This document shows, piece after piece, positions 3,615 through 48,600 of a DNA stretch of 64,000 bases; position 1 is the stretch's first letter, and each line of letters opens with the position of its first letter. Made by a program: the position numbers and the translations under genes. The stretch covers positions 29,512,001 to 29,576,000 of the forward strand of contig OY740800.1 in NCBI GenBank assembly GCA_963514005.1. Reading direction: 5' to 3'. The notes beneath the pieces are model-generated. The model had not been told where the DNA came from, did not search any database, and saw only the letters and a program-made list of their open reading frames with translations. Origin of the DNA: Raja brachyura (Eukaryota).

Positions 3615-3698
3615 CTGCTTCCATTGAGGAACAGCAGCATGTGGTGTTGCTTCTCTTTGTCTGCTGTACGGATGCTCCTGCGATGAGAGGTTTGGCCG
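3615..3698 (-). CDS. MICAL3: Probable alternative MICAL exon [28 protein letters not shown]
   Basis: 84 nt, phase 0-0; gctcacag| and CAG|gtaaac; PxWKQ ending recalls a MICAL3 cassette exon (from memory). Confidence 0.65.
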
Positions 3699-15600: not shown

Positions 15601-18600
15601 CAGAGCAGAGCAGTCCCTGGAAATATGAAAAGTGAAAACTAGGAGTAACTAGAAAATTAGGCATCTAAGGAGAGAAAATCTAAGCAATTGTTACAGGAGA
15701 CCTTGCATCAGCGTTGGCCAGCTCAGGCTCAGAGGCAGGTTATTTGAAAATGTAACTCTTAATTTGGTGATTTTCTTCCAGCTATGTTGACTTCCATTGG
15801 AAGAGTGCAGAAGGCTAAAGAGAGAAAGATCAGAGTAGGATGGAGCAAGAGGTCACTCTGTACACAGGGTGAAGTAGGGTCAGGCTTCACTAGGTCAGAG
15901 TGAAAGCAGACAGGGGTTTCTTAGCAGACAGGTTAAGCAATGTCCAGTGTTACATTGTACGGCCAATTGGGTCAGGGGCCAATAGACAATAGGTGCAGGA
16001 GTAGGCCATTCGGCCCATCGAGCCAGCACCGTCATTCAATGCGATCACGGCTGATCATCCCGTGATCATGGCTGATCAGGGGCCACTCTGTACATGGGCT
16101 CAGTGGGCTCAGGGGTCACTTTATACAGCTTCTGCTACTCTCTGTACACTGGGCACTAACTCACTTGTTTCCCTGCAATCTTCACAGCTGTAACGTGCCT
16201 ATCATAATCCTAAAACACAAACACATAGAAGGACGTCAAAGGTGGGAGTTGGTCTCGGTGATCTGCGGCTGTGATGAAGCAGACCCAGGGCTGGTGTTCA
16301 CACCGGGAAACCGGCAACCGGACCACGGGGGCACCGAGTGGCGACAGCACCGGCCCCAGGGGACAGGCCCCACCTGATGCCTGGGTTTGGACAGGAACCC
16401 CATCCGAGGCAAGGTTAGAGGTGACTGGGGGCCCTCAGGGAGGTCAGGGGTCACTCTCCTTCCAGGGCGAATGGGTTTACTATAGAATGTTGGTGGGATC
16501 GTGGGTGGGGTGGGTGTGATGGTGGGTCACTGCACACTGTTTTCATGTTGGGTTGCAAGCTACCCAAGCAGAATATGATGTGTGGTTCCTCCAGTCTCTG
16601 TGTGGCTTCACTCTGGTAATGGATGAGACCGAGGGTAGAAAGGCCGGAATGGGAATGGGAAGTGGAGTTAAGATGGATAGTAACCGAGAGATCCAGCAGG
16701 CCTTGGTAGACCGACGGCAAGTGCTTGGCGAAACATTCTCGCCAATGTGGAGCAGGCCACATCAATAGCATTGTATGCAGTAGATGGGGTTATAGAAGGT
16801 GCACGTGAATGCCTGTCTCACCAGGAAGGGCTGACAGGTCACCCTTTACACAGGGCCAGTGAGGACATGGGGTCAGTAATGATTATACACACGGCCATCG
16901 GTCACTGAACTGAGGGTCAAAGGTGTAAGAAGGAACTGCAGATGCTGGTTTACACCGACGATAGACACAAAATGCTGGAGTAACTCAGCGGGTCAAGCAA
17001 CATCTCTGGAGAAAAAGGAATAGGTGACCTTTTGGGTCCAGACCCTTCATCAGTCTGATTCGAAACGTCACCTACTTGTTTTCTCCAGAGATGCTGCCTA
17101 ACCTGCTGAGTGACTCCAGCATTTTGTGTCTATCTCAGGGTAAAGGGTTTGCATAAAGGCTGGTGTGGCCAGTATTCATTCTGTACAGAGGATTTGTGGG
17201 GTCAGGGGTAATTTTGTACGTGGGGCAGGATTAGGGATCACTCTGACCAAAGGGACAATGGGATCAGGGGTCACTCCGTACATATAGTCATTGGGGTTAG
17301 GGGTCACTCTGTACACGGGATCAGGTGTCTGTACACAGTGGGATCCTGCTATTCTCTGTACGTATGTACTAACTCACTTGTTTCGCTGCAAGCTTCATAG
17401 TTGTGACATTTCTACCATGCTCCTAGAACACAAACACATAGAAGGACATCAGAGGTGGGAGCCGGTCTCGGTGTTCTGCGGCTGTGATGAAGCAGACCCA
17501 GGGCTGGTGTTCACACCGGGAAACTGGCAACTGAACCACGGGGGCACCGAGTGACGACAGCACCGGCCCCGGGTGACAGGCCCCACCCGATGCCTGGGTT
17601 TGGACAGGAACCCTATCTGTGGCAAGGTGTTGGGTTGTAAGCTACCCAAGCAGAACATGAGGTGTGGTTCCTCCAATTTTGTCGGGCCTCACACTGGTAA
17701 TGGAGGAGGCCCAGGACAGACAGGTCGATATGGGAAAGGGAAGTAGAGTTAAAATGGATAGTAACCGAGAGACCGACTGCAAGTGTTCGGCGAACCAGTC
17801 TTGCCAATGTGGTGCTGGCCACATCATTGAATGCAGTAGATGGGCTGAACGCCTGTCTCAGCTAGAAGGACAGACAGGTCACGGAGGACAGGGCTCAGTA
17901 ATGTCTATACACAGGGTCAGCGGTCACTGAACAAAGAGTCAGAGGAATCAGATTGTCACTATGTAGTTTTCAGGACTCACTCTAACAGTATGGTCAAAGG
18001 CAACGGGGTCAAACTGTACACAGGGTCAAAGGCGTAAGAAGGAACTGCAGATGCTGGTTCACACCGATGATAGACATAACATTTTGGAGTAACTCAGCGG
18101 GACAGGAAGCATCTCTGGAGAAAAGGAATAGGTGATGTCTCATGTTGAGACCCATCATCAGTCTGACCCGAAACATCACCTACACGTTTTCTCCAGAGAT
18201 GCTGCCTGATCTGCTGAGTTACTCCAGCACTTTGTGTCTATCACAGGGTGAAAGGGTTCCGAGGCCCCTTTGCACAAAGGCTGGTGTGGCCAGTGTTCAT
18301 TCTGTACAAAGGATTATACATTCTGTACGTAGTGGGGCCAGGGATGATTTTTGTGCATGGGGGCAAGAATGGGGATCACTCTGACCAAATGGTCAGCAGA
18401 GTCAGGGGTCACTCCTTACACAAGGTCAGTCGGGTCAGGTGTCTCTGTAAACGGTGGGTTCCTGACACTCTGTACGCGGGGTACTAACTCACTTGTTTCA
18501 CTGCAAGCTTCATAGCTTGTGACACTTCTACCATAATCCTAAAACAAACACACAGAAGGACGTCAGAGGTGGGAGTCGGTCTTGGGGATCTGCAGCTGTG

Positions 18601-21600
18601 ATGAAGCAGGCCGAGGTCTGGTGTTCACAACGGGAAACTGGCAACTGGACCACATGGGGCACCCGGTGACAACAGCACCGGCCCGGGGGGACAAACCCCA
18701 CCTGATGCCTGGGTATGGACAGGAACCCATTCCGTGGCAAGGTTAGAGGCGACTGGGGACCCCTGCTGAGGGGTCAGGGGTCACTCTGTGCACATGGTGA
18801 ATAGCGTCAAGAGTCACAATACACAGGAACTGGGTGAGAAGGGTCAAAGGCCATCCAGCACAGTGTCAGTGGGAAAAGAGGGTGAATGGGATCTATGTCA
18901 CCTAATAAATAGGGTTTGTGGGGAAACGGGGTGTCTCTCTGTAGCCAGTGTGAGAATAGACAGGGATTATTAGTGGATAGGGGGAGTAGGGTGTTTTTGG
19001 ATTAGCGTGTACACGTAGTTAATGGGGTCAGGGTCACTCTGTAAACAGGGTGAGTGGGCTCAGAGGTGAATCTGTAAACAGGATAATAAGGTCATGGGTG
19101 AACCTGTACACAGGGAGATGAGGCCGGCAGTGAATTTGAACAGTGACGGAGCCAGGGCTGCAACTGTACACAAGGTGATGGGGTCAGGGGCATATCCGTA
19201 CTCAGGTTGAGTGGGGGTCAGGGGTCACCATGTTCACAGGGTGAGTGCGGTCAGGGGTCACCGTGTTCACAGGGTGAGTGGGGTCAGGGGTCACCGTGTT
19301 CACACGGTGAGCGGGATCAGGGGTCACTGTGTTCTCTGCACCTTCTTTAAGCCCCTGTCCCACTTTCCCGAGTTACTCACGAACTCTCCCGAGTTTTCCC
19401 CTTGATTCGAACTCGGGGAATGTCGGGTAATGTCGGTAGCGAGCTCGTAGGAACCCGATGGAGTCCGTAGATGTTTCATAGCGGCTTGTAATGCCAGCCG
19501 TAGGAACTCGGGGAATCAGGTAAGTCGGGATGTTTTTTCAACGTGTTGAAAAATGTCCATGAGTTAAAAGAAATAGCCCCGACTACCTACGAGCGGCTAT
19601 TACCATAATTCTCCGAGTTCGAATCAAGGTGAAAACTCAGGAGAGTTCGTGAGTAACTCGGGAAAGTGGAACAAGGCCTTAAAACTTTGCCCCCTGCACC
19701 TTACAGGTATGCTTTCTAGTTTGTTGATATTTCTACACTTGGAGAAAAAAGTTTTGCCTACATTATTTATTCCTCAGTTATAAGGAAAAAGTGCTTTCCC
19801 TGGAGTTTTGGAGTCTGATGGATGACCTGATATAAGTATACAAAATTATGAGCGGAGTGGAATAGATAGGATTGATAGAAAAATCTTTTTCCCATGGTAG
19901 CGGTGTCTGAGATTTGAGGGAATGGGTTTAAAGTGAGAGGGTTAGAAAGAACTGAAAGGGAATTATTTCATAAAGAATGTGAACCTGGAATGTGCTGCAC
20001 GAGGCAGTGGTGGAAGCAGAGACATCACAGCATTTAAAAAGCATCTAGACATGCCCTTGCATCGCACAGGCAGAGGAGTCTGAGGTCCATATGCAGGTAA
20101 ATGGGATTAGTATAGTTGGGTTCGATGATGGCATGGCCGTGGTGGGCCAAAGGGCCTGTTTCTAGTGCTGTTCACAGAGTCAGTTAGGACAAGGGTCCTT
20201 CTGCACATGGGATCAAGGGTCACTCTGCGCATAGAATAGTGGGGTCAGGGGTTACTCTGTACACAGTGGGTTCCTCCTACTCTCTGTACACAGGGTACTA
20301 ACTCACTTGTTTCCCTGCAATCTTCATAGCTGTAACACGTCTATCATAATCCTAAAACACAAACACACAGGACGTCAGAGGTGGGATCTGCGGCAGCAAT
20401 GAACCAGTAACCCCATCCAAGGCAAGGTTAGAGGTGACGTGGGCCCTCCATTAGGAGTCGCTCTCCTCACTGGGCATGTGAGGTCAGGGATCATTCCGAG
20501 TGGTGTCAGCGGTGATTGTAGGCAAGTGGGTGGGGTCAGGGGTCACTGCACAAGGTGCATGGGGTCACTCTACACATTGAGTGAGGTCAACGGTCACTCT
20601 GTATAGAAGGTGAGTGGGGTCAAGGGTCACTCTGTATACAAGACGAGTGGGGTCAGGGGTTGCTGTGTTTACCGGGTGAGCGGAGTCACCGGTCACTGTG
20701 TTAACAGGGTGAGAGGGGTCAGGGGTCACCATATTCACAAGGTGAATGGAGTCAGGGGACACTGTACCACAAAGATCCTATAGCAAGCAAGATAGTCTAC
20801 TTGACGAAAAAGACGTAGTACGGTCATGGGCAGATTCATGGGTAATTTAAGGCCCCATTTCCGTAACCGGCTTCCGTCTCCGCACCAAAGATCCCATAGG
20901 ATACTAGTGCGGAGACGGAAGCCGGTTACAGAAACAACCTCGTAAAAATAAAAGTGAATTGGTAAAAATCTTCTGCTCATTTTCAGAATTTTAATTTGTT
21001 AACACAAACTGTTCCCCGCAACGTTGATTACACTGCGAGTCGGGTCGGGTCGGGTCCGGTTACGGAAATGGATGAAAAAAAGGCCCACTTTCCATTCCAT
21101 TGAATACTACACGTCAGCCCATTGCATTTAGCAGGAGTGGTCTATCTTGCTCTGATCTTTGCCGTACAATGGGTGAGTGGGGTCAGGGGTCACCGGCTTC
21201 ATAGAGTGAGTGGGGTTGTCATTCTCGCTACCTGAACTAACTCACATTTCTCTGTGCCGGGTGGGTCATTGGCTCACGTCCTAAATTATCCTAAAACACA
21301 GAAACATAGCGATAAACTCATCAACAATCTGCAGGTCTGCTCCCGATGTAAATCTGAGATGCCCACGGTGCCTGGGATGGTTACTTGGATGGGTGTGAGC
21401 GGTATGAAGGGTCAGTTTGTACTCAGGGTCATGGTCAGCGGTCAATCTGTATGCACTTTATGGAGGGGGGGGGGTCACTCTGTTCACAGGTTCAATTGCA
21501 TCAAGATCAGTCAGTACATGGGGTCATTGGGTGACTTGGTGTTTTTGTGGAGAGGGAGGTGGGTTGTCTGAGACTACAACATGGTATGGATCAGGTGGAC

Positions 21601-24600
21601 GCCTGGATGGAGCAACGGTAGATGGGTATTTAATCCTGACAATTGTGAGGCGGGGCACAAGAGCAGTGGGGTCAGGAGTTACTCTGTACACAGTGGGTTC
21701 CTCCTACTCTCTGTACAATGGGTACAAACTCACTTGTTTCCCTGCAATCTTCATAGCTGTAACACGTCTGTCATAATCCTTAAACACAAACACACAGGAA
21801 GTCAGAGGTAGAATCTGCGGCTGCAATGAAGCAGGAACCCCATCTAAGGCAAGGTTAGAGGTGACGGGGGGGATCACACTGTACACAGTGAGTCATGGTG
21901 GCTCTGTACACATGGGGAGTGGTGTCAGCGGTGACTGCAGACAAGTGGGTGGGGTCATATGGGGTCGCTCTGTACACATTGAGTGAGGTCAAGGGTCACT
22001 GCAATGAGCGTGAGAGGGGTCAAGGATCACTATACAAGGCGAGAGGGGTAAAGGGTCACACTGTGACAAGGGTGCGTGGGGTCAAGGGTTACTCTGCATA
22101 CAAGGTGAGTGGGGTCAGGGGTCACCGTGTTCACAGGGTGAGTGGGGTCAGGAGTCACCATGTTTTCAAGGGTGAATGGGGTTGTCATTTCCTCTACCTG
22201 AACTAACTCACATGGTCTCTCTGCCGGGTGGGTCATTGGCTCACCTCCTAAATTATCCCAACACATAGAAACACAGCGATAAACTCATCCACAATCTGCA
22301 GGTCCGCTCCCAATGTAAATCTGAACTGCCCACGGTGCCTGGGATGGTTCCATGCACTGGATGTGAGGGGTATAAACATCAACCTGACATCATCATCCTT
22401 TATGCAAGGTAAAAAGGTGTAATAGGTCATTGTACTCGGGGTCAGTGGGATCAAGGGTCAGTCTGTACACAGGGTCGTTGTCAGGGGTCAATCTGTATGC
22501 ACGTTATGGGGCGGTGGGGTCACCCTGTTCACAGATTCACTTGGATCAGGGTCAGTTAGTACATGGGGTCAATGGGTGACTTGGTGTTTTTGTGGAGAGG
22601 GAGGTGGGTTGTCTGAGACGACAACATGGTATGGATCAGGTGGACGCCTGGATGGAGCAACGGTAGATGGGTATTTAATCCTGACAATTGTGAGGCGGGG
22701 CACAAGAGCAGTGGGGTCAGGAGTTACTCTGTACACAGTGGGTTCCTCCTACTCTCTGTACAATGGGTACAAACTCACTTGTTTCCCTGCAATCTTCATA
22801 GCTGTAACACGTCTGTCATAATCCTTAAACACAAACACACAGGAAGTCAGAGGTAGAATCTGCGGCTGCAATGAAGCAGGAACCCCATCTAAGGCAAGGT
22901 TAGAGGTGATGGGGGGCTTCTGTTAGGAGTCACTCTCCTCACAGGATGATCAGCCATGATCACATGGAATGTCAGTGCTGGCTTCATAGGCCATATGGCC
23001 TACTCCTGCACCTAATGCCCATTGTATGTGGGGTCAGGGATCATGCTGTACACAGTGAGGCAGGGTGGCTCTGTACACATGGGGAGTGGCGTCAGCGGTG
23101 ACTGTGGACAAGTGGGTGGGGTCAGGGGTCACTCTTTATACAATGAGTGGTGTCAAAGGCCACACTGTGACGAGGATGAGTGGGGTCAATGGTCACCCTG
23201 TTCACAGGGTGAGTGGGGTCAGGGGTCACTGTGTTTACAAGGTGAGTGGGGTTGTCGTTCCCTCTACCTCAACTAACTCACATGTCTCTCTGCCGGTTGG
23301 GTCATTGGCTCACGTCCTAAGTTATCCTAAAACACAAAACACAGCGATAAACTCATCAACAATCTGGAGGTCGGCTCCCGACAGAAATTTGAGCTGTCCA
23401 CGGTGCCTGGGATGGTTCCCTGCACTGGGAGTGAGGGGTATGAACATCAACCTGACATCATCATCCTCTATACAAGGTAAAATGGTGCAACGGGTCATTG
23501 TACTCAGGGTCAGTGGGGTCAAGGGTCAGTCTGTACATGGAGTCGTGGTCAGGGGTCAACCTGAATGCACGTTATGTGGGGGGGGGGGGGGGGGGGAGGG
23601 GTCACTCTGTACACAGGTTTAGTTGGATCAAGGTCAGTCAGTACATGGGGTCAATGGGTGACTTGGTGTTTTTGTGGAGAGGGAGGTGGGTTGTCTGAGA
23701 CTACAACATGGTATGGATCAGGTGGAAGGCTGAATGGAGCAACTGTAGATGGGTATTTAATCCTGACAATTGTGAGGCAGTGCACTTTCCAAGGGCAATC
23801 AAGGGTAAGGTGGACACAGTAAACGTTAGATGCCTAGAGTGTTGATGAACAGAGGGACCTTTGGGTAGAGGCCCACTGATCCCTGGAACTGGCAGCACAA
23901 GTGGAGAGGGTGGTGAAGAAGGCATCTGGGATGCTTGTCTTCACTGGTCAGGGCAGAGAATATAAGAGCAGGGACATGGTGTTACAGCTTTATAAAACAC
24001 TGGTTAGGCCTCACCTCGTGTATTGCGAGCAGGTCTGGTCACCACATGATAGGACAGGACTGATTACACTGGGGAACACGATATTGAATGGTTTGGAGCA
24101 TTTCATAGAACAGTACAGAACAGGAACAAGCCTATTGGTCCAGGATGTCTGTGCAGAACATGATTCCAAGATCTGCCTACACATGATCCATAATCCTCTG
24201 TTCAAATGCCACAATCATAAATGCCTCCACCACCAGGCTGGCATTTATTCCTCAGTTATAAGGAGAAAGTGGATAGGCAGAATTGGCTTACCCTGGAGTT
24301 TTGGAGTCTAATGGATGACCTGATAGAAGTATACAAAATTATGAGCGGAGTGGAAGAGATAGGATGGATGGTAAAAATCTTTTCCCCCATGCTTAATTGG
24401 CATTGGGAAAAATAATTGACATGGCCGTGGTAGGCCAAAGGGCCTGTTTCTAGTGCTGTACGACTGTTCACAGAGTCAGTCAGGGCAAGGGTCACTCTGT
24501 ACATGTGGTCAAGGGTCACTCCGCGCACAAGAGCAGTGGGGTCAGGGGTTACTGCGCACACAGTCGGCTCCTCCTACTCTCTGTACACAGGGTACTAACT

Positions 24601-27600
24601 CACTTGTTTCCCTGCAATCTTCATAGCTGTAACACGTCTGGCACAATCCTAAAACACAAACACACAGGACGTCAGAGGTGGGATCTGCAGCAGCGATGAA
24701 GTAGGAACCCCATCCAAGGCAAGGTTTGAGGTGACGGGGGGGGGGGGGGGGGGGGCCTCTGTTAGGAGCCACTCTCTTCACAGGATATGTGGGGTCAGGG
24801 ATCAGCCAGGACAAGGGTCTCTCTGTACATGGGGTCAAGGGTCACTACGCGCACAAGAGCAGTGGGGTCAGGGGTTACTGCGCACACAGTCGGTTCCTCC
24901 TACTCTCCTACAAGGTGTGGGGTCAGGGGTCACCGTGTTCACAGGGTAAGTGGGGTCAGGAGTCACCATGTTTTCAAGGGTGAGTGGGGTTGTCATTTCC
25001 TCTACCTGAACCAACTCACATGGTCTCTCTGCCGGGTGGGTCATTGGCTCACCTCCTAAATTATCCCAACACACAGAAACACAGCGATAAACTCATCCAC
25101 AATCTGCAGGTCCGCTCCCAATGTAAATCTGAACTGCCCACGGTGCCTGGGATGGTTCCATGCACTGGATGTGAGGGGTATAAACATCAACCTGACATCA
25201 TCATCCTTTATGCAAGGTAAAAAGGTGTAATAGGTCATTGTACTCGGGGTCAGTGGGATCAAGGGTCAGTCTGTACACAGGGTCGTTGTCAGGGGTCAAT
25301 CTGTATGCACGTTATGGGGCGGTGGGGTCACCCTGTTCACAGATTCACTTGGATCAGGGTCAGTTAGTACATGGGGTCAATGGGTGACTTGGTGTTTTTG
25401 TGGAGAGGGAGGTGGGTCGTCTGAGACTACAACATGGTATGAATCAGGTGGAAGGCTGAATGGATCAGCTGTAGATGGTATTTAGACCTGACAATTGTTA
25501 GGCAGTGCACTTTCCAAGGGCAGTCAAGGGTAAGGTGGACACAGTAAATGGTAGAGCTCTAGAGTGTTGATGGAGAGAGGGACCTTTGGGTAGAGGCCCA
25601 CTGATCCCTGGAAATGGCAGCATAAGTGGAGAGGGTGGTGAAGAAGGCATCTGGGATGCTTGTCTGGAAGGGTCACTCTGTACACAAGGCGAGTGGGGTC
25701 ACTGTGTTCATAGGGTTGACGCTCCCTGTCCCTGAACTAACTCACTGGTTTCTCTGCCGGCCTGGTTACTGCCTCACGTCTTAAATGATCCTAAAACACA
25801 GAAACACAGAGACAAATCCATCAGCAATCTCCAGCGCTGCTCTCGATGTAAATCCGAATTGACCACAGTGCCTGGGATCGCTCCCTGCACTGGGTCCTGG
25901 GGGAACGGACATCAACCTGACATCGTCATCCTTTATACAGGATGGGCCAGAGATTACAGAACACAGTGTCAGCGAGGTCGGGGTTCTCTTTATACATAGG
26001 GTTACTGGGGTCAGGGTTCACTGCAGGTGGTCACTCAGGTCAGGGTTTCACTCTTTCCGCAGGGTTCATGGATCTGGGGTCACGACACATAGGGTTGCTG
26101 GGATCAGGGATCACTATGAACATACCTATGCACACAGGCGGTTCCTTCTACTCTCTGTACACAGGGTACTAACTCACTTGTTTCCCTGCAATCTTCATAG
26201 CTGTAACACGTCTGTCATAATCCTAAAACACAAACACACAGGACGTCAGAGGTGGGATCTGTGGCAGCGATGAAGTAGGAACCCCATCTAAGGCAAGGTT
26301 TGAGTTGACGGGGGGGGGCCTCTGTTAGGAGTCACTCTCCTCACAGGATATGTGGGGTCAGGGATCACACTGTACACAGTGAGTCATGGTGGCTCTGTAC
26401 ACATGGGGAGTGGTGTCAGCGGTGACTGCAGACATGTGGGTGGGGTCATATGGGGTCGCTCTGTACACATTGAGTGAGGTCAAGGGTCACTGCAATGAGC
26501 GTGAGAGGGGTCAAGGATCACTATACAAGGCGAGAAGGGTAAAGGGTCACACTGTGACAAGGGTGAGTGGGGTCAAGGGTTACTCTGCATACAAGGTGAG
26601 TGGGGTCAGGGGTCACCGTGTTCACAGGGTGAGTGGGGTCAGGAGTCACCATGTTTTCAAGGGTGAATGGGGTTGTCATTTCCTCTACCTGAACTACCTC
26701 CCATGGTCTCTCTGCCGGGTGGCTCATTGGCTCACCTCCTAAATTATCCCAACACACAGAAACACAGCGATAAACTCATCCACAATCTGCAGGTCCGCTC
26801 CCAATGTAAATCTGAACTGCCCACGGTGCCTGGGATGGTTCCATGCACTGGATGTGAGGGGTATAAACATCAACCTGACATCATCATCCTTTATGCAAGG
26901 TAAAAAGGTGTAATAGGTCATTGTACTCGGGGTCAGTGGGATCAAGGGTCAGTCTGTACACAGGGTCGTTGTCAGGGGTCAATCTGTATGCACGTTATGG
27001 GGCGGTGGGGTCACCCTGTTCACAGATTCACTTGGATCAGGGTCAGTTAGTACATGGGGTCAATGGGTGACTTGGTGTTTTTGTGGAGAGGGAGGTGGGT
27101 CGTCTGAGACTACAACATGGTATGAATCAGGTGGAAGGCTGAATGGATCAGCTGTAGATGGTATTTAGACCTGACAATTGTTAGGCAGTGCACTTTCCAA
27201 GGGCAGTCAAGGGTAAGGTGGACACAGTAAATGGTAGAGCTCTAGAGTGTTGATGGAGAGAGGGACCTTTGGGTAGAGGCCCACTGATCCCTGGAAATGG
27301 CAGCATAAGTGGAGAGGGTGGTGAAGAAGGCATCTGGGATGCTTGTCTGGAAGGGTCACTCTGTACACAAGGCGAGTGGGGTCACTGTGTTCATAGGGTT
27401 GACGCTCCCTGTCCCTGAACTAACTCACTGGTTTCTCTGCCGGCCTGGTTACTGCCTCACGTCTTAAATGATCCTAAAACACAGAAACACAGAGACAAAT
27501 CCATCAGCAATCTCCAGCGCTGCTCTCGATGTAAATCCGAATTGACCACAGTGCCTGGGATCGCTCCCTGCACTGGGTCCTGGGGGAACGGACATCAACC

Positions 27601-36600: not shown

Positions 36601-39600
36601 GTAACCCGACCCGACTCGCAGTGTAATCAACGTTGCGAGGGAACAGTTTGTGTTAATAAATTACAATTCTGAAATTGAGCAGAAGATTTTTACCAAATAA
36701 GTTTTATTTTTACGAGGATGTTTCCGTAACCGGCTTCCGTCTCCGCACTAGTTATCTTTGCTCCGCTATGGGTTCTTTGGTGTGGAGACGGAAGCCGGTT
36801 ACGGAAATGGGGCCTAAAATTACCCATGAATCTGCCCATGACCGTACTACGTCTTTTTCGTCGAGTGATCTATCTTGCTCGCTCTAGGATCTTTGATCCA
36901 AGGCAAGGTTAGAGGTGACTGGGGGCCCTCAGGGAGGTCAGGGGTCACTCTCCTCACAGGGTAAATGGGGTTACTATAGAATGGTGGGGCCGGGGTCACT
37001 GCACAGTGTTGGCAGGGTCAGGGGTCGCACTGTGCACAGGGTGAGCGGCTCAAGTGTCACTCAGTACTCATGGTCAGTGTGGGGGCAGGGGTGATTGGGG
37101 GGAGAGGGAGCAGTAAGAAATGTATGCACGAGAAAACCTAGAATGGTCAGCAGAGGTGCTGGGGGGAGGGTTACCTAAAATCTGAGAATTTAATGTTCAT
37201 GTTGTTGGGTTTTAAGCTACCCAAGCAGAATATGAGTAGTAGTTTCTCCAGTTCACATGTCTCCTCACTCTGGTAATGAAGGAGGCACAGGACAGAAAAG
37301 CCAATATGGAAGTAGGAAGGGGAGTTAACATGGTTGGTAACAGGGAGATCCAGCAGGCCTCAGTGGACCGACTGTAAGCGTTCAACAAAACAGTCTTGCC
37401 AATGTTGAGCAGGCCACATCAATGGCATTAAATGGAGTAGATGGGGTTATAGGAGGTGCAGGTGAATGTCTTTCTCACCTGGGCAGGTCATCCTTTACAT
37501 TGGATCAGTGAGAACAGGGCCCAGTAATGTCTATACACAAGGTCGGGGGTCACTGAACAAAGGGTCAGAGGAATCAGATTGGCACCTCGTGTTCAGGAGC
37601 CACTCTAACAGTAACGTCGAAGGCAACAGGTTCAAACTGTACACAGGGTCAAAGAGTTCAGGGGTCTCTTTGCACAAAGGCTGGTGTGGCCAGTGTTAAT
37701 TCTGTACACAGGGTCAGTGGGGTCAGGGGTCACTCCTTACACAAGGTGAGTGGGGTCAGGAGTCAGTCTACACAGTGGGTTACTGCTAGTCTCTGTACGC
37801 GGGGTACTAACTCACTTGTTTCTCTGCAAGCTTCATAGCTGTAACACTTCTACAATAAGCCTAAAACACAAACACACAGGATGTCAGAGGTGGGAGTCGG
37901 TCTCGGTGATCTGCGGCTGTGATGAAGCAGACCCAAGGCTGGTGTTCACACCGGGAAACCGGCAACCGGACCACGGGGGCACCGAGTGATGACAGCACCG
38001 GCCCTGGGGGAACAGGCCCCACCCGATGCCTGGATTTGGACAGGAACTCCGTCTAAGGCAAAGATCCTATAGCAGAGCAAGCTAGACCACTCCTGCTAAA
38101 TGCAATGGGCTGACGTGTAGTACGCAATGGAGCGGAACGTGGGCCTTTTTTTCACCCATTTCCGTAACCCGACCCGACTCGCAGTGTAATCAACGTTGCG
38201 AGGGAACAGTTTGTGTTAATAAATTACACTTCTGAAAATGAGCAGAAGATTTTTACCAAATAACTTTTATTTTTACGAGGATGTTTCCGTAACCGGCTGC
38301 CGTCTCCGCACTAGTTATCTATGCTCCGCTATGGGATCTTTGGTGTGGAGACGGAAGCCGGTTACGGAAATGGGGCCTAAAATTACCCATGAATCTGCCC
38401 ATGACCGTACTACGTCTTTTTCGTCAAGTGATCTATCTTGCTCACTCTAGGATCTTTGATCCAAGGCAAGGTTAGAGGTGACTGGGGGCCCTTAGGAAGG
38501 TCAGGGGTCACTCTCCTCACAGGGTGAATGGGGTTACTATAGAATGTTGGTGGGGCCGGGGTCACTGCACACAGTGTTGGCAGGATCAGGGGTCGCACTG
38601 TGCACAGGGTGAGTGGCTCAAGTGTCACTCAGTACTCATGGTCAGTGTGGGGGCAGGGGTGATTGGGGGGAGAGGGAGCAGTAAGAAATGTATGCACGAA
38701 AAAACCTAGAATGGTCAGCAGAGGTGCTGGGGGGAGGGTTACCTAAAATCTGAGAATTTAATGTTCATGTTGTTGGGTTTTAAGCTACCCAAGCAGAATA
38801 TGAGTAGAAGTTTCTCCAGTTCACATGTCTCCTCACTCTGGTAATGATTGAGGCACAGGACAGAAAAGCCAATATGGAAGTAGGAAGGGGAGTTAACATG
38901 GTTGGTAACGGGGAGATCCAGCAGGCCTCAGTGGACCGACTGTAAGCGTTCGACAAAATACTCGCCAATGTTGAGCAGGCCACACCGATAGCATTGAATG
39001 GAGTAGATGGGGTTATAGGAGGAGCAGGTGAACGTCTGTCTCACCTGGACAGGTCATCCTTTACATTGGGTCAGTGAGGACTAGGGTCAGTGACAACAGG
39101 GCTCAGTAATGTCTATAAACAAGGTCACTGAACTAAGGGTCAGAGAAATCAGATTGGCACCTAGAGTCACTCTAACAGTAAGGTCAAAGGCAACAGGGTC
39201 AAAGTGTACACCGGGTCAAAATGTTCAGGGGTCCCTTTGCACAAAGGCTGGTGTGGCCAGTGTTCATTCTGTACACAGGGTCAGTGGGGTCATGGGTCAC
39301 TCCTTACACAAGGTCAGTGGGGTCAGGAGTCAGTCTACACAGTGGGTTCCTGCTAGTCTCTGTACGCGGGTACTAACTCACTTGTTTCTCTGCAAGCTTC
39401 ATAGCTGTAACACTTCTACCATAATCCTAAAACACAAACACACAGGATGTCAGAGGTGGGAGTCGGTCTCGGTGATCTGTGGTTGTAATGAAGTAGACCC
39501 AAGGCTGGTGTTCACACCGGGAAACCGGCAACCGGACCACGGGGGCACCGAGTGGCGACAGCACCGGCCCTGGGGGACAGGCCCCACCCGATGCCTGGAT

Positions 39601-42600
39601 TTGGACAGGAATCCCATCCGAGACAAGGTTAGAGGTGACTGGGGACTCCCGGAGTTCCCTCTTTACACAGGGTCAGAGGGGAAAGGAGTCTCTCTGCCCA
39701 CAGGCTCAAACAGTTCAGCAGACATGCTGATTGGGAGGAAATGTCTCAAAATCAATAGGGTCAGTGAGAACGGTGGTCTCTGTCTCTGTCCCCAGAGACA
39801 GCAGGGACAGGGGTCTGGTTGTGCACTGGGAGTGTGGTCACCCCCTACACAGGGACAAGGGGGTCAGGGGACAGAGGCAGTCTGTACACACAGGCAATAG
39901 GACGGGCAGTCAATGTACAAAGTGTAAGTGCATTCAGGGGTCACTTTGTGCACAGGTCAGTGGATCAGAGGTGACCCTCTCCGCAGGATGTGGTGTCAGG
40001 GTTGACCCTGAATGTGTGGGGTCAGGGGTCATTGCAGACCAGTCAGTGGGGTCAAGGTGACCCTGAACACGGTGCATGGGGTCAGGGGTGACTCTGTGGG
40101 GCCAGGGATCACTGTCCTACCGTCTACCTAAACTAACTCACATGTTTCGGCGACGGCCTGCTCAATGCTTCAAGTACTACATTTTCCTAAAACACAGAGA
40201 CACAGAGATAAGCCCAAAAACAAACTCCAGGTCCTCTCCCGATGTAAATCCGTACTGACCACGGTCCCTGGGATAATCCCATACATTGGGTGTGAGGGGT
40301 ATCGACCACCCGACATGATCATCCCTTAGATAGGCACAGAAATCTGGAGTAATTCAGCGGGTCGGGCAGCATCTCTGGAGAAAAGGAATAGGTGACGTTT
40401 CGGGTTGAGACCCTTCATCATCCTTTATACAGGGGCAGGGGTCACTGGTCACAGGGTCAGTGAGATTGGGGGTTCTGCCTAGACTCAGGGTCAGCTGTGA
40501 CTATACAAAGGATCAGAGGTCTCAATGGTCATTCTGCACACAGGGTTCATGGGGTAGAGGTATCTCTCTAAATAGTGTAATGGGGTCAGAGGTGACTGCA
40601 GTGAGTGGGGTCAGGGGTCACTATACAACACAAGGACAGTGGGGCCAGGGACTGCTTTGTACTTGGGGTCAGGGGCCAGCCTCTACACTGGGCGTCAATG
40701 GAGGTGCAGGTGTTACCCTGTACCTTGGGATCAGTTACAAATTCCGAGCAGATAAGTTGACACTCTACAGAATCAATGGTGACAATGACCGGTGCATTGT
40801 TGTACAAAGGACACACTCACTATTTTCTCTGGAGTTTGAACTGTCATCATACTTCTATAGATGGCCTAAAACACAAAAATAATGTCAACAAATCTGAAAA
40901 GGAGAGGACAGGGTCAGACTACACGGGATGGGTGGGCTCAGGGTGGGTGGGAGAGTGTCAGTGTACACGGGATGGCTGGAGAGGGTCAGAAGTTAATGAT
41001 CTTATGGTCGTCACCATATCTAGGGTGAAAGTTGGGTGAGCTCTGCTGTGTGAAGGCGAGACCAACGCATTGTCCACTTGGCACACATACTCGGGCTTCT
41101 CAGCAGTCTGCGGGGCACCGCGCACACGCGACTGTGTACACAGTTGGCATACACCCCAGTATGTGCAGGTGTGCACAGGGCCAGTATCAATAGGACTCTC
41201 TCTGAGTGATGTTACAGAGTGGCATCCAAAGAAGGGTGTTGTGGAGCAGGGAAGGTGCCTTAGACAAGGAACGCATGGACATGGCGAGTGGAAATAAGGC
41301 CATGGTGGGGATGGTGAATGCAGTGGTGTTATTGGCTGTAAAGGACGAGGAGAGCATGATGGACGTCCTGCAAAAATTCAGTGAATAAGAAGCACAGAAT
41401 CCTCAACACAATCGCCGGCGAGGCAACAACGAACGCTGTCCGTCCAATGTGTACGGCCTCAACCAAACACCACAAAAGCCTGATGTCATCTGTGACACCT
41501 CTAATGCCCTCCAACACCTTGCCTGTTTGCAATTCTCTGGTGCTCATCATGGACATACAGTCTCTTTACATCACCATCCCACATCACGAGTGTCCACTGA
41601 GCCTCCACTTCTTCCTTGAATAGAGGCCCAACCAATTTCCCAGCCCAACACACCCATTCACCTGGCCCAACGGCCTCACATTGAACAATTTATTCTTGAA
41701 CTCCACCCACTGGTGCAGCTGTGGGCACTCGCATGAGCTCAAGCCATGGCTGACTTTTTATGGAACAGTCTTTGTGTCAGTCCTATCTGAACCCATTCCC
41801 TCAACTTTTCTCGCAGTGCATCCATGACTACCTTCGTGCTGCTTCCTGCACTCATGTTGAATATTTCATCACTTTTGCTGCCAATTCAACACTGTCCTCA
41901 CCTTCACATGGTCAATCACTGACTATTTTCTTCTCCTTTCTGGACATCTCAATCTCCATCTCAGACCTAGCCACTAAGACTCGTTGCAAGCCTATCGACT
42001 ACCGCAGCTTTCTAGACTACACTTCGTCCTGCCTTCTGCAAGGACGCTGTTCCACTCTCCCAGCCCTTCCATCTCCGTCGTGTTTGCTCCGACAAAGAGA
42101 CTTTCCGTATAGGTGTCTCTGGAACGTCTTCCTTCTTCCTGAACTACAGCTTCCCCTTTAACATTCTTAACAAAGCTCTTGACTGCATCTGATCCACTAC
42201 CCATGCCTCTGCTCTCACCCCTCTCCTACGAAACAGAACAAGAATCGAGCTCCCCTGGTCCTCACCTCCCACCCCACCAGCCTATGCATCCAACAGATCA
42301 CTCTCTCCCATTTCTGCCGCTTCCAGACACATCTCCCTCTCTCCTTCCCTTTCTGTATTTCACAGGGAACGTTCCCTCCAAGGCTCCCTGGTTTCCGTTT
42401 GCACCAACCACCCCGTTTCTTACAGCACTTTCCCTGCACCTACAAGTGATACATTTGTCTTTTCACCTCTTACCACTATCCAGGGACGCAAATAGTTTAT
42501 CCAGGTGAAGTAGTCATTACAATCTAGCGGACTGCATTCAATGTTCACAGCATGGTCTCCTCCACACTGGGGAAACCAAAATCATTGGGTAACCGCTTTG

Positions 42601-45600
42601 TGGAACATCTGCCTTCAGACCACAGAGGATAGCAATAGATAGACATCACGACTGGCCGGCTTAGATGAAGTGAGCTTAAGGCCAGTTCCTGTGCTGTACG
42701 ATTCCACGATTCATAGTATTTGCTGCTCAAGATATAATCTCCTCTGCACCAAGGAGACTAAATGCAGGGTGAACTCTGTGGAGAACCCAAAATGGGCCGA
42801 ACTTTCATTTGTCCATCACATTAATCTGCCCTCTTGCTTCCATCTCATGCTTAGCCTCTTTCACACTGCAAAGGAAACCGTGAGGAATTGCACCTTGTCT
42901 CCTAGCAAGGCACTGAACACCTGGGCAACCTACACCTGATGTCAACCACCAGATCAGCAGCACTACCGCTTGCAATTCGATTTCCAGCATCTGTAACATT
43001 TCTAAACATTTCTCCCTCCCCTGTCTGTACCTCCTCCAGGCCCACCCTCCGTTTCTTGACTTCAAGCCAAGACCAAGAGTCAAGAGAGTTTCTTGTCATG
43101 TGTCCCTGACAGGCCAATGAAATTCTTGCTTTGCTTCAGCACAACAGAACATAGTAGGCATTGACTACAAAACAGATCAGTGCATCCATATACCATTCTA
43201 TACGTAAATACACACATGACTTGGCTCAGTGTCACCGTCTGACCCACACCCATCACCTTGCCCAGTCTCTCCGGCCCAACGGCAGAGATCTACCCCTCCA
43301 TTCCCGTCATCCCTCTGCATCCTCAAACTATGTCCAGATGAAGGATCGTTGAGCTGAAAGATTAACGCTTTCTCTCTCGCTATCTGACCTACTGCGTATC
43401 TCCAGCATTTCCTGTTTTTATATAGTCTTGATCCTTGGAGAAAAGTTAGGTAAAAATCAGAATTAAATCAACAATTTCCACTCAAGGGGCTGGACTGCAA
43501 CAGTCTGTACAAGGGGTACACATGGTCCTGGTGCAAAGCCAGCTGGAGCGGTGTGAGCAGCTCGGAAGCACACTCCAAACCAGAATGCCCTGATGGTGTC
43601 TGTGCCCTCCACCCAGGGTTTAATGCAGACTCCACAAACTAGGCAAGTTTAGCCTGGCATCTGGAGGATTCCTTCCCGATTTTTCTAATATAAATCAGAA
43701 CAACAAGGAGAGATAGAAAACGAGTGACTTTTATGATTGGGCGGATGAAACACAACGGACTCAGTTTAACGGAGAGAATTAGTCTGCTGGGAAATGGGGA
43801 ACGTGAAAATAGGTTGGAAGTGTGAGTGGCTCTCCTGTAAATGGCAGCTGAAGGCATGCTGTTCACATTAAACATAAAGTTTTTGCTAATCAAGGCATAT
43901 TAACAGGAAAAGAAGCTGGAGGGAGATGCGTCACTTGGAGGGAGAAGCGTCACGTGGAGGGTCACAAAGTGGCTACACATAATGATTAAATAATGAATTC
44001 CTCTTACAATGAAAACAGTATCCACAGGTTCACGGGTCACAGTGTACATGCTGATACAAGGGTCAAGGGTCAGTAGATTGCGAGGTCACAGTGTATTGGT
44101 CAATGCAGGGGATGAGGTAATACTGTTCAATGGGATCAGAGTTCACAGTGTACCAGTCAGTACATGGGTGAGGGGTCAGTCTACACGATGTCAGCAGGTT
44201 TAGAGGTCCTTGTGTACATTAGCAGTGGTGTCAGGAGTCACGCTGTACCAGTCTATACAATGGTGGGAATTGCTCTGTACACGGGGTTAGTGGGTTCAGT
44301 GATTATGTGCGTGGATCACTGGGTTCAAGGGTCACACTGCACATGGGGTCAGGGGGTTCAGGGGTTACACCGTACATTGGGGTCAGTGGGTGAGGACAGG
44401 CTCAGTCTGTAGACAGGGTCGAGCTCAAGGGGAACTTGGGCCAAGGTGCTTAATGAGCTGAAAGCCTCAGTCACTACACTAGAGGGCAAACTCACTGATT
44501 TCTCAAGGTCTGCTGCTGTACGATTTAAAAGGCCCTGAAATGGGAAAGAAATAGAATCAAATCATTCATCCATTATCATAAACCATTCGAGAAACAAGAG
44601 TGCGGAGGAGAGGAGTTTGGAAGATCTTTTATCACACAGTCAGTGAAGGAAATGAGCAACATGGTTGGTGGGGCCAGGGGTCAGTTTGTGCACTGTGTGT
44701 GGGGTCAGGGTAGGGGGAGCACAGTGAGTTGGGGCAGTCCAGTCCACAGTCCAGTTAGTACATGGGTGATGGGTCAGTCTATACAAGGTCAGCCGGTTTA
44801 GGGATCCTTGTGAACAGTAGCAGTGGTGTCAGGAGTCACGCTGTACCAGTCTATACAGTGGAGGGGGGGGGGGGGGATTGCTCTGTACACATGGTTAGTG
44901 GGTTCAGTGATTATGTGCGTGGATCACTGGGTTCAAGGGTCACATTGCGTACATGGATCAGGAGGTTCAAGGGTCACACTGCACATGGGGTCAGGGGTTC
45001 AGGGGTTACACCCTACATGGAGGTCATGAAGTGAGGACAGGCTCTGTAGACAGGGTCTAGTTCAAGAGGAACATGGGTCAAGGTGCTTAATGAGCTGAAA
45101 GCCTCAGTCACCACACTAGAGGGCAAACTCACTGATTTCTCAGCTGATGTAGGTGTACGGCTTAAAAATCCCTAAAATTGGAAAGAAATAAAATAAAATC
45201 ATTCATCCATCCATTATCATAAACCATTCAAGACAAAAGTGTGTGGAGGAGAGGAGCCCAGAAGATCTTTTATCACACAGTCAGTGAAGTAAATGAGAAG
45301 CATGGTTGGTGGGGGCCAAGGATCAGTCTGTGCACTGTGTGTGGGGTCAGGGTAGGGGCAGCACAGTGAGTTGGTGCAGGTGACTGTGTTTAGGACAGTG
45401 GGGCCAGGGGTCACTCTGTAGAAATGGTGAGTGGGGTCATGGGTCACAGTATTCACAGGTGAGTGGGGTTGTCATTCCCTCTATGGCCTGGGTGCAGCGG
45501 TAGAGTTTATACATTACAGGGCCCCCGGTTCGATCCTAGCTACAAGCGCTGTCTGTACGGAGTTGGGACGTTCTCCCAGTGACTGCGTGGGTTTTCCCCG

Positions 45601-48600
45601 GGTGCTCCAGTTTCCTCCCACGCACCAAAGATGTACAGGTTTGTAGGTTAATTGGCTTCTGTAAAAACTGTAAATTGTCCCTAGTGTGCAGGATAGTGCT
45701 AGTGTATGGGAATCGCTGGTCGGCGCCGACTCAGTGGGCCAAAGGGCCTGTTTCCACACGGTATCTCTAAACTAAACTAAACTGCTGGGACTAACTCACT
45801 TGTTTGTCTGCCAGCCTGCTCATTGTTCCACGTTCTATATTATCCTAAAAGACAGAGACAAAGAGGTAAACCCACCAATAATCTCCAGGTCCGCTCTCAG
45901 TGTAAATCTGAACAGGCCAGGGTGCCCGGAATGGTTCCCTGCACTGAGTGTGAGGGGCATGGACATCAACCTGACATCATTATCCATTATACAGGGTCAG
46001 GGATCACTGGACATCAGGTCAGGGATCAGGGTTCTGTCTATACTTGGGGCCGCGGGGTCACAGGGCACAAGACCACGATCACCATACAGAGGGTCAGAGT
46101 TTCCAGTGGTCACTCTGGACCCAGGTTCCATAGGGACAGAGATTTCTCTGTACTCATGACCAGGGATCACTGAACACAGAGTCTGAGTGGTCAAGCGACG
46201 CTCTGTATACAGGGTAAGTGCGATCAATTTATTGGGGCAGCAGGGAAGGGGGTCTTTCTCTGTACATAGAGTGAGGGTGGGCAAGGGTTTTTTGTTAAAC
46301 ACAGGGTGAGCAGGGTGTCAACTCACTGATTTCTGATAAGAGGGGTCAGGGGGTCACTGTCCTCGCAGGGTGAGTGGGGTCAGGGGTCACTGTACTCACA
46401 GGGTGAGCGGGGGTCAGGGGTCGCTGTACTCACTGGGTTAGTGGGGTCAGGGGTCACTGTACTCGCAGGGTGAATGGGGTCAGGGGTCACTGTACTAGCA
46501 GGGTTAGGGGTCAGGGATCACTGTACTCGCAGGGCGAGTGGGGTCAGGGGTCACTGTACTCACAGGGCAAGTGGGGTCAGGGGTCACTGTACTCACAGGC
46601 CGAGTGGGGTCAGGGGTCACTGTACTCACAGGGCGAGTGGGGTCAGGGGTCACTGTACTCACAGGGCGAGTGGGGTCAGGGGTCACTGTACTCACAGGGT
46701 GAATGGGGTCAGGGGTCACTGTACTCACAGGGTGAGTGGGGTAAGGGGTCACTGTACTCACGGGGTGAGTGGGGTCAGGGGTCACTGTACTCACAGGGTG
46801 AGTGGGGTCAGGGGTCACTGTACTCACGAGGTGAGTGGGGTTGACGTTCCTTCTACCTGAACTAACTCACATGTCTCACTGACAAGTTGCTTCTTGTCTC
46901 AAGTTCTCCATCACCCTAAAACAGAAACACAGAGAGAAATTCATCAACTGATGCTGGGGGTCTGTGCCGATCCCCTGGGTCCCCGGGTCGGCACCTCAGT
47001 GGAAGAGCAGGTAGTATCCTCGAGGGTGGGACTGCAGTCTGTGGAGGGACATGATGAGAACTGGACAGCAGCCACTGGACAAGGGTGACAATATAGCAGC
47101 GTTACTGGAGCATGGTGGACATTGCTGCCCTGGCCCTCGTGGAAACAACGGAGATGGCTAAATGACCTTTGAACGCAGAGCCAACCAAGCATGTGGGCCT
47201 CCACGACCATGGACTAGATGGGCCGAATGGTCTGTGTTGTAAGGCCTGCAGAACCTGCGCACAGTAGGTACTCACGAACACAGCGTGAAATTAGCTGCAG
47301 ATACTTGTGACCATAACTGGAAGTGGGACTGCAGAACCTGTGAACACTGTGTGAAGCGGGTTGGTGGATAATTATGAACACAGTGAGACTGCTGACACTC
47401 ATGCACACAGTGTTAAGTAGGCTTGTGAATACTCACAAACACGGTGTGAAACAGCTTTCTGGATAATTGTGAACAACAGGATGTAGGCTCAAGGATGCTA
47501 GTTCAAAGTGGGACGTGGGGCAGTTTAACAGAGCAGGAAGTGTGTCAGTCAACATCTATAAACACGGCTGAAGGTGAGTAGTAGTGAATACAGTGGGGTG
47601 GGCTCATGGAGACACCTGAACACAATGGGAAGAGGCCTGCAGACATCGTAAACACAGTGTGATGTAGGCTTGTGAACACGTGAGCAAAGTGCGAAGTGGG
47701 CCTATGGATACTTGTGAACACAGTGTGAAGTCGGCTTGTGGAGGTTAGCACAAAGTGGAATGAGGGGCAGCGACATGGCAAGCAGGAAGTGAACTAGAAA
47801 ACTCTTGTAAAACTCAGCTAAAGGTGACCAGTAGTGCACGTGGGAAGTGGACACTTGTGAACTCATTGGGCAATGGACGTCACTGGTAAACATTGGAGTG
47901 GATTAATGGGCTAGTTGTGGATGGTCTAGTCTAGTGGATACTAGTGAATGCAATCAGGAGTGGATTAATGGACACTGGTGAATACTGTGAAGATCAGTGA
48001 TGGGAGGCACTTGTTTACCTCGATGTTGATTCAGGACATGTGTAAGCCCATGTCAGGACCACAGACTGTGTAGGACACTAAATAGTCCAACTCCCTGGAC
48101 CGGTCGTCCAATTCTCTCCACCTTCGACTTTGAAAATCAGTCTTTACAGGCTCAGTCTAAACAACTACTCATATCCATCTCACAACCTTCAGCGTTTGTG
48201 CTGCCACGTCCAGCGGTGATGGAACCTAAACCAGATCCATCCTTGTGCTTCTACCCTGTGGTAGCAGAATCACTGGTACAAATGAGCAGGCAACACTTCC
48301 CTCCCCTCTCCTCAGAAGCTTACCTTTGGCATCCGTTTGCGTGTGATATTCTGTCCCAGCCTGGTTAGGAACGAGATGGGCGATTTTGTGGTAACTCCAA
48401 TGGTGGATGAGTGAAATCCCAGCAGGTATTCTGTAGGGGAGAAGTCCATTCATAACTTTAGCCCAGTGGCTGCAAATGCAGAATGAGTCAGTACAGCTGA
48501 TGACAAGTCGCCTATATGAACAGGACCTGCACTTAAACCTGTTCCATTGAACAGGTAAATATTCCATTGGTAAATATTCTCAATAACCACCTTAATTAAA

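Follow-up and report, generated by a model that had tools for sequence, protein, structure and literature searches.

In titin, the PEVK region is encoded by many short, duplicated and repetitive exons that are alternatively spliced and vary the length of a disordered segment (PMC6469411), and nebulin and tau contain repeat arrays with one repeat per exon, the exons being alternatively included (bioRxiv 10.1101/2023.04.29.538821). Vertebrate MICAL3 combines monooxygenase (MO), CH, LIM and bMERB domains in this order, with an alternatively spliced linker. The microexon described for it is a single 51-nt exon beside the coiled coil (PMC12721327), and MICAL2 and MICAL3 have a putative bipartite nuclear localization signal (NLS) (PMC10742852). 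We here describe a tandem array of 28 in-frame microexons, located at a different place, in a MICAL3-type gene of the skate Raja brachyura. The array lies in a stretch of 64,000 nt (‘the window’; NCBI GenBank assembly GCA_963514005.1, contig OY740800.1, positions 29,512,001 to 29,576,000 of the forward strand), and all coordinates are counted from its first nucleotide unless stated otherwise. We consider it moderately probable that in skates the array is a block of co-included cassette exons tied to a short MO-CH isoform, to which it adds a disordered tail of variable length.

The array is situated on the minus strand between the exon ending in ..RKRMPK and the exon starting with EDRLAH. Many of its units (15-residue peptides, where 45 nt long) belong to related families, named A, B and B'. 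In the order of transcription, the exons are:

52504..52695, minus strand: exon for the second half of the CH domain, 100% identical to residues 564-627 of the homolog P0010; bounds approximate (tblastn)
48324..48430, minus strand: constitutive exon ending ..RKRMPK, with a phase-0 donor; encodes the L2-alpha-1 helix and aligns with MICAL1 630-647
46871..46915, minus strand: unit 1, 45 nt, 15-residue peptide; the first unit in Leucoraja models, 7/15 identical
45800..45844, minus strand: unit 2, 45 nt, 15-residue peptide; 13/15 identical to Leucoraja
45133..45171, minus strand: unit 3, 39 nt, 13-residue peptide
44496..44534, minus strand: unit 4, 39 nt, 13-residue peptide; duplicate of the unit 3 region
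40821..40865, minus strand: unit 5, 45 nt, 15-residue peptide
40142..40186, minus strand: unit 6, 45 nt, 15-residue peptide; 14/15 identical to Leucoraja
39382..39426, minus strand: unit 7, family A, 45 nt
37816..37860, minus strand: unit 8, family A, 45 nt
36257..36301, minus strand: unit 9, family A, 45 nt
35776..35823, minus strand: unit 10, family A, 48 nt
35382..35426, minus strand: unit 11, family B, 45 nt, with a GTGGGT donor; Leucoraja model P0013 holds a similar one
34789..34836, minus strand: unit 12, family A, 48 nt
33157..33201, minus strand: unit 13, family B, 45 nt
32640..32684, minus strand: unit 14, family A, 45 nt
30707..30751, minus strand: unit 15, family B, 45 nt
29112..29156, minus strand: unit 16, family B', 45 nt
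27861..27905, minus strand: unit 17, family A, 45 nt
27429..27473, minus strand: unit 18, family B', 45 nt
26178..26222, minus strand: unit 19, family A, 45 nt
25746..25790, minus strand: unit 20, family B', 45 nt
24604..24648, minus strand: unit 21, family A, 45 nt
23282..23326, minus strand: unit 22, family B, 45 nt
22779..22823, minus strand: unit 23, family A, 45 nt, AAG acceptor
21734..21778, minus strand: unit 24, family A, 45 nt, AAG acceptor
21246..21290, minus strand: unit 25, family B, 45 nt
20307..20351, minus strand: unit 26, family A, 45 nt
17378..17422, minus strand: unit 27, family A, 45 nt
16165..16209, minus strand: unit 28, family A, 45 nt, the last unit; 13/15 identical to the last Leucoraja unit
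11572..11670, minus strand: exon EDRLAH..KRQ with a phase-0 acceptor, the entry to the long isoform; LIM and bMERB lie past the window start

All 28 units (24 of 45 nt, two of 48 nt and two of 39 nt) are in phase 0, as are the flanking sites at 48324 and 11670, and together they amount to 1254 nt or 418 amino acids (aa). Every one of them has the sequence attributes of a cassette microexon: a length of at most 51 nt that is a multiple of three, AG and GT splice sites, and the phase of the flanks. The donor is GTGAGT in 27 units and GTGGGT in one, and the array introns measure 349-3630 nt. Frame 0 is open in 28/28 units, frame 1 is closed in 28/28 and frame 2 in 27/28. An earlier, sequence-only reading of the window had given the number, sizes, span and donors of the units exactly as found here, and was also right that frame 0 is free of stops, that the units lie in a MICAL3-type gene and that any subset of them preserves the frame. 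For the DYDRRVT copies it had described both other frames as closed by TGA. The AG that it gave for the acceptors holds in 28/28, two of which (22823, 21778) are AAG rather than YAG. In 23 of the 28 units the donor itself spells an in-frame Val-Ser(or Gly)-stop, and failure to splice at nearly any donor would terminate the protein immediately; the ancestral unit may simply have passed this stop on to its copies.

A splice-site scan of the minus strand recovered 26 of the units directly within the 31-kb span, and the control scans of two paralogous MICAL loci gave seven matches in 28 kb and three in 8 kb, which were scattered and formed no family. A census by BLAST with exon-plus-flank queries brought the number of copies to 33 altogether. 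Genome-wide (2.70 Gb), every match to family A plus flanks (at least 15) and to family B (at least 14) was within the window; dispersal of the 45-mers as a transposable element, named beforehand as a refutation of the array, was thus not seen.

The gene holding the array can be assigned by comparison with known MICAL proteins. With MICAL3 models of Leucoraja erinacea and Amblyraja radiata, the exon upstream of the array shares 93-95% identity, and the exons in the window match the close homolog P0010 at 78-100%, in which Pfam PF25413, PF01494 and PF00307 mark an N-terminal MICAL monooxygenase followed by CH. For the whole protein the best PDB match is human MICAL3 (6ICI; 1106 bits versus ~699 bits for MICAL1), and for the CH domain alone MICAL3 scores 194 bits versus 161 bits for MICAL2. 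By sequence similarity, the gene is closer to MICAL3 than to MICAL1 or MICAL2. The LIM exon was located just outside the window start in the same genome, and bMERB is carried by the long homologs P0002, P0156 and P0166, in which the domain order of the long isoform is MO-CH-LIM-bMERB. The genome has three MICAL loci, and the other two have no array between CH and LIM.

The splicing use of the units was read from automatic RefSeq-type gene models of other species, not from RNA of Raja brachyura. Eleven Leucoraja models hold 7-20 units each, and several of them differ by a single skipped unit. Through these database models only, the units are shown to be co-included as a block with individual skips, not as one of many; of the modes of use considered in the sequence-only reading, this matches the combinatorial cassette set and disagrees with a Dscam-like choice. 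None of the 12 unit-bearing skate models joins the EDR exon: eight end in Lys-Tyr-stop (KY-stop), and four run into the intron as Val-Ser-stop. None of the 15 long skate models has a unit. The joining of the array to the 11670 exon that had been expected was accordingly not found in skates. The Lys-Tyr-stop could be placed in the window, where it had been overlooked:

14902..15322, minus strand: alternative last exon, AG/AAA TAC TAG (Lys-Tyr-stop) with an untranslated tail; matches the end of eight Leucoraja models and of Rhinoraja X13

The site at 15322 is the single YAG/Lys-Tyr-stop on the gene strand in the whole window, 842 nt beyond the last unit and ahead of the 11670 exon. The first AATAAA after it (14907-14902) was taken as the putative exon bound. 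In run X4 the KY exon has one difference in 472 nt versus 70 in 3408 nt in the run's other seven listed pieces, a comparison that is biased since the run was found using the KY stretch. About 65 nt of its untranslated part (about 15240-15307) belong to a dispersed repeat with at least 40 other matches, and the exon may have been partly recruited from this repeat. A repeat-derived stretch after a CAG at about 12214-12288 (minus strand) resembles the alternative end of Rhinoraja P0003 (GDQ..NCNIM..LYSVP) and, judged by this resemblance, may be another alternative last exon within this intron.

Candidate regulators of unit inclusion were also considered. An upstream UGC enhancer is the signature of SRRM4-dependent neural microexons; the TGC motif is present upstream of two of the 28 units only, and this signature was rejected. 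Motifs of RBFOX, QKI and MBNL were not enriched.

The position of the array is informative with respect to MICAL regulation. The L2-alpha-1 helix is inserted like a wedge among the CH domain, the LIM domain and the coiled coil (PMC11557892), and the array starts directly after this helix, as the exon before it aligns with MICAL1 630-647. Autoinhibition of MICAL requires CH, LIM and RBD together and is conserved in MICAL3, whose long L2/L3 loops have been proposed to tune it (PMC11315924). MICAL forms without the C-terminal domain are constitutively active (PMC9982024), and F-actin stimulates human MICAL3 FMO-CH ~15-fold (PMC6949599). We hypothesize that a regulated splicing choice switches the skate gene between a long, autoinhibited, Rab-controlled enzyme and a short MO-CH enzyme: the block would run into the Lys-Tyr-stop exon, and the long LIM/bMERB isoforms would skip the block. 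The short form is probably not autoinhibited because LIM and bMERB are missing; lacking the CH-LIM-bMERB brake, it should disassemble F-actin without Rab input. Its C-terminal tail, disordered and mildly basic, would be 0 to about 420 residues long, depending on splicing. In electric ray and zebra shark, where the block is joined to the long isoform, it would instead lengthen the L2 linker and may in this way weaken the brake. Disorder and a mildly basic character are predicted for the arrays of five species, with FoldIndex values of -0.12 to -0.16 versus +0.17 to +0.19 for MO and CH; each of the five has a net charge of +0.06 to +0.10 per residue. For the action of the tail, its length, disorder and charge probably matter more than its exact sequence.

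Units are also present outside skates, and across sharks and rays they form a family of phase-0 exons of 13-16 codons directly behind the L2-alpha-1 helix. Among 22 non-skate shark and ray sequences, three stop before the anchor, and 11 of the remaining 19 have units at the same boundary. Narcine (electric ray) X1 carries nine units with the same A/B alternation, Stegostoma (zebra shark) seven and Scyliorhinus 21, and in Mustelus six of eight isoforms carry units, in differing subsets. Nine of the 11 unit-bearing sequences, from the electric ray and three sharks, rejoin the EDR-type exon, so that the earlier expectation of a junction with the downstream exon is borne out there, and two end short. 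In Narcine X1 and Stegostoma X1 the array occurs together with LIM and bMERB. No holocephalan MICAL3 was among the matches listed. The alignment shows shark and batoid units to be homologous in sequence: the in-register score is 4.84 versus -10.1 ± 1.2 for shuffled units, all rotations score -7.8 or lower, and the interior positions alone outscore 5000/5000 shuffles. Methionine is found in 17/20 Leucoraja units, and, given its rarity in Narcine (2/9) and Scyliorhinus (1/21), a methionine decoy was rejected. Mimicry of the actin D-loop was rejected as well: among 357 actin windows, the D-loop took ranks 39, 7, 3, 92 and 33 with the five unit sets, and in 440-500 of 500 trials the best shuffled score was higher than its own.

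Five of the 33 copies are defective and had escaped the sequence-only reading. Four are family-B copies of 46 nt, in which the acceptor AG has become GG and one base has been gained, and two of these also lack the GT:

28386..28431, minus strand: dead family-B copy, 46 nt, acceptor and donor lost
26703..26748, minus strand: dead family-B copy, 46 nt, acceptor and donor lost
25020..25065, minus strand: dead family-B copy, 46 nt, acceptor lost
22212..22257, minus strand: dead family-B copy, 46 nt, acceptor lost
18493..18538, minus strand: family-A copy, 46 nt, splice sites intact; inclusion would shift the frame and give a stop in the next unit

Contigs from three DNA runs, each of a different organism, span the last of these gap-free, so that it is no assembly slip; its sequence makes it a candidate poison exon or dead copy. 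Exons were duplicated together with their introns, in segments that are 67-99.5% identical, and a 1.68-kb unit is present three times at 99.5% identity. By its sequence, the array has grown via tandem exon-plus-intron duplication, independently per lineage. A 33-bp minisatellite that contains GTGAGT and ACTCAC occurs across the array introns (19165-46841), with its strongest matches local and weak ones elsewhere in the genome, and may have promoted unequal crossing-over. Sequestration of donors by the intronic ACTCAC of this minisatellite was unsupported, donor pairing being 0.65 versus 0.69 in shuffled sequence.

Several observations weigh against the reading of the skate block as part of a short isoform under splicing control. 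Rhinoraja X13, one of two Rhinoraja isoforms examined, reaches the KY-stop without any unit, so the array is not required for truncation. The coupling to the KY-stop is drawn from automatic models and may partly be an artefact of short-read gene modelling, because short reads cannot link distant exons. Truncation is not general, given the nine shark and electric-ray models that rejoin the downstream exon, and units were not seen in three anchored stingray and bamboo-shark models (P0032, P0153, P0035). There is also no sign of purifying selection on the residues of the units. The pN/pS ratio among paralogs is 0.98 in family A (eight distinct) and 1.77 in family B (six distinct), both from small counts; identity in the exon versus its immediate flanks is 0.89 versus 0.84-0.87 in family A and 0.73 versus 0.76-0.85 in family B, and distal flanks are less identical (0.63-0.71). 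The defective state of five of the 33 copies also counts against this reading.

Other explanations of the array have to be weighed against these data. It seems rather unlikely that in this skate, too, the array serves mainly as a tunable spacer, by which up to 418 aa would be inserted between L2-alpha-1 and the 11670 exon and alter the distance from CH to LIM/bMERB. Units and both flanks are all in phase 0, the array is predicted to be disordered, the proteins of Narcine X1 (nine units) and Stegostoma X1 (seven units) contain LIM and bMERB, and Scyliorhinus and 6/8 Mustelus models rejoin the EDR-type exon; in skates, however, 0/12 unit-bearing models do so and 0/15 long models hold a unit. The PEVK-like tunable spacer put forward in the sequence-only reading thus agrees with the rejoining in electric ray and sharks, but not with the skate models. 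In composition the units are not PEVK-rich: their P/E/V/K content is 25%, and 25-37% across the arrays, versus 21-22% in folded controls. We find it improbable that the 15-mers form a sequence-specific multivalent ligand of F-actin, microtubules or membrane, with the number of units setting avidity as in tau or nebulin. Unit length, A/B alternation and positions D1, R/K10 and K14 are common to skate, electric ray and sharks, and the mild positive charge recurs in five species; yet the repeat is without a Pfam family, PDB match or related protein, pN/pS among paralogs is about 1 or more, skate and shark units are widely different, and the splice sites partly dictate the boundary residues.

The recent near-identical duplications, including the 1.68-kb unit, the local minisatellite, the five defective copies and the missing purifying signal at the amino-acid level would also suit a largely neutral expansion, in which one symmetric exon with strong splice sites was copied by unequal crossing-over in introns rich in minisatellites and the copies were tolerated as frame-preserving, the short transcripts only diverting output from the long isoform. 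This is quite improbable, as homologous units with an open frame are still found at this boundary in both sharks and batoids, the frame is kept by 28 of the 29 copies with intact splice sites, and the KY stop sits in the last exon; a stop codon there escapes nonsense-mediated decay as a rule, and the transcript should do so here. A tandem cluster of related exons of similar size recalls mutually exclusive choice of the Dscam type, with one unit per transcript, but the chance of this is very small: up to 20 units occur in one model, the introns are 349-3630 nt long, a branch-point-like motif of their own lies near -27 in family-A units, and the donors pair no more than in shuffled sequence, although no docking-site search was made. 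LINE- and SINE-like pieces in the introns, and the position of the 99.5% triplication outside the stretch compared with reads, could suggest that the array consists of transposon fragments or results from misassembly. This has hardly any probability and is already refuted for the entire array, since the units match this locus only, the same units occur in independent assemblies and in models of other species, and parts of 11500-21400 are represented in contigs of three DNA runs that differ by 0-3%. Of these accounts, we favor the co-included block with a short MO-CH isoform as the account of the skate array.

The boundary that holds the array was compared with that of bony vertebrates in 114 MICAL sequences from the best 120 of 655 matches. 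In none of the 114 does the 15-residue periodicity exceed 0.11, and in 99 a [KR]RRK segment lies at most 25 residues from the anchor, so that the short mammalian linker of the sequence-only reading is an incomplete description. Alternative splicing of the linker also occurs in bony vertebrates. We take the [KR]RRK segment to be the second basic cluster of the putative bipartite NLS (RKRxPK..KRRK) of MICAL2/3; it was not found in the window or in the elasmobranch models. Considered as a possible ancestor of the units, the KRRK segment is the best window in four of five bony-vertebrate linkers, with scores of 0.7-3.2 versus 12.7 among units and one residue out of register. More speculatively, and in our view doubtful, the array might be an elasmobranch splicing dial on MICAL3 autoinhibition: it would have replaced the nuclear-localization segment and set the distance of the LIM-bMERB brake unit by unit, and the skate stop exon would remove the brake, leaving a multivalent basic tail that tethers an always-on, actin-disassembling enzyme in a single tissue (muscle or electric organ, for example).

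Further features of the surroundings were recorded. Three more L2-linker cassette exons lie at 2234-3698 of the window (minus strand), and their combinations vary among Amblyraja long models. In Hemitrygon P0032 two downstream linker exons are tandemly duplicated, a second case of exon duplication in this linker. LINE-type reverse-transcriptase fragments (family assigned by eye) are present in introns at 4433-6401, 13754-14176 and 50550-52172. Elsewhere in the genome, a tandem cluster of at least ten actin genes was observed on C4 (35.46-35.77 Mb), each of them with the greater part of its coding sequence in one long open frame.

MICAL activity must be tightly restrained, and the long linkers of MICAL3 are proposed tuners of its autoinhibition (PMC11315924). 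At exactly this position the locus provides a natural series, in which in-frame units number from 0 to about 28 and the brake domains are present or absent, and this makes the proposal testable. The locus also illustrates clearly how an exon array can expand independently in skates, electric ray and sharks, with living, dying and frameshifted copies next to each other.

The repeat has no counterpart among Pfam families, solved structures or related proteins, and a repeat-family search of 1.84 billion representatives returned ten matches, all unrelated periodic repeats (nine of the ten were scanned against Pfam). The sequence-only reading had known of no such array in MICAL, and no description of it was found in the literature searched either, most subscription papers being outside it; MICAL is not mentioned in the main text of two surveys of duplicated or repeated alternative exons, which mainly list human genes. 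The array exons are already included in automatic RefSeq models, and a paper describing the array was not found. The locus appears to be a previously undescribed variant of exon-duplication repeat arrays.

Compared with titin PEVK, the array is similar in its many short, duplicated, alternatively spliced exons and in the disordered length variation. It differs in that its units of 15 aa belong to the regulatory linker of an enzyme, for which no mechanical load is known, and are accompanied by an alternative last exon in skates. As Pfam and protein searches gave no sequence match to PEVK repeats, it is best seen, by analogy, as PEVK-like in logic and not as a PEVK member. With nebulin and tau it has in common one alternatively included repeat per exon; no sequence similarity between those repeats and the MICAL3 array was found, and a ligand of the array is hypothetical. 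Dscam-type clusters likewise consist of tandem duplicated exons, but the MICAL3 units are co-included, and SRRM4 neural microexons are also at most 51 nt long, but have the upstream motif that is found in only two of the 28 units. The KY-stop isoform would resemble MICAL2, which is without the C-terminal coiled coil and constitutively active (PMC11557892). MICAL2 differs in retaining LIM and the bipartite NLS (PMC10742852), and the MICAL2-type C18 locus of the skate keeps an exon with the KRRR cluster and is array-free. The closest system remains vertebrate MICAL3, which has the same domain order and an alternatively spliced linker; where 99 of the 114 bony-vertebrate sequences have [KR]RRK after RKRxPK, the skate has the array of 15-mers and the KY-stop last exon.

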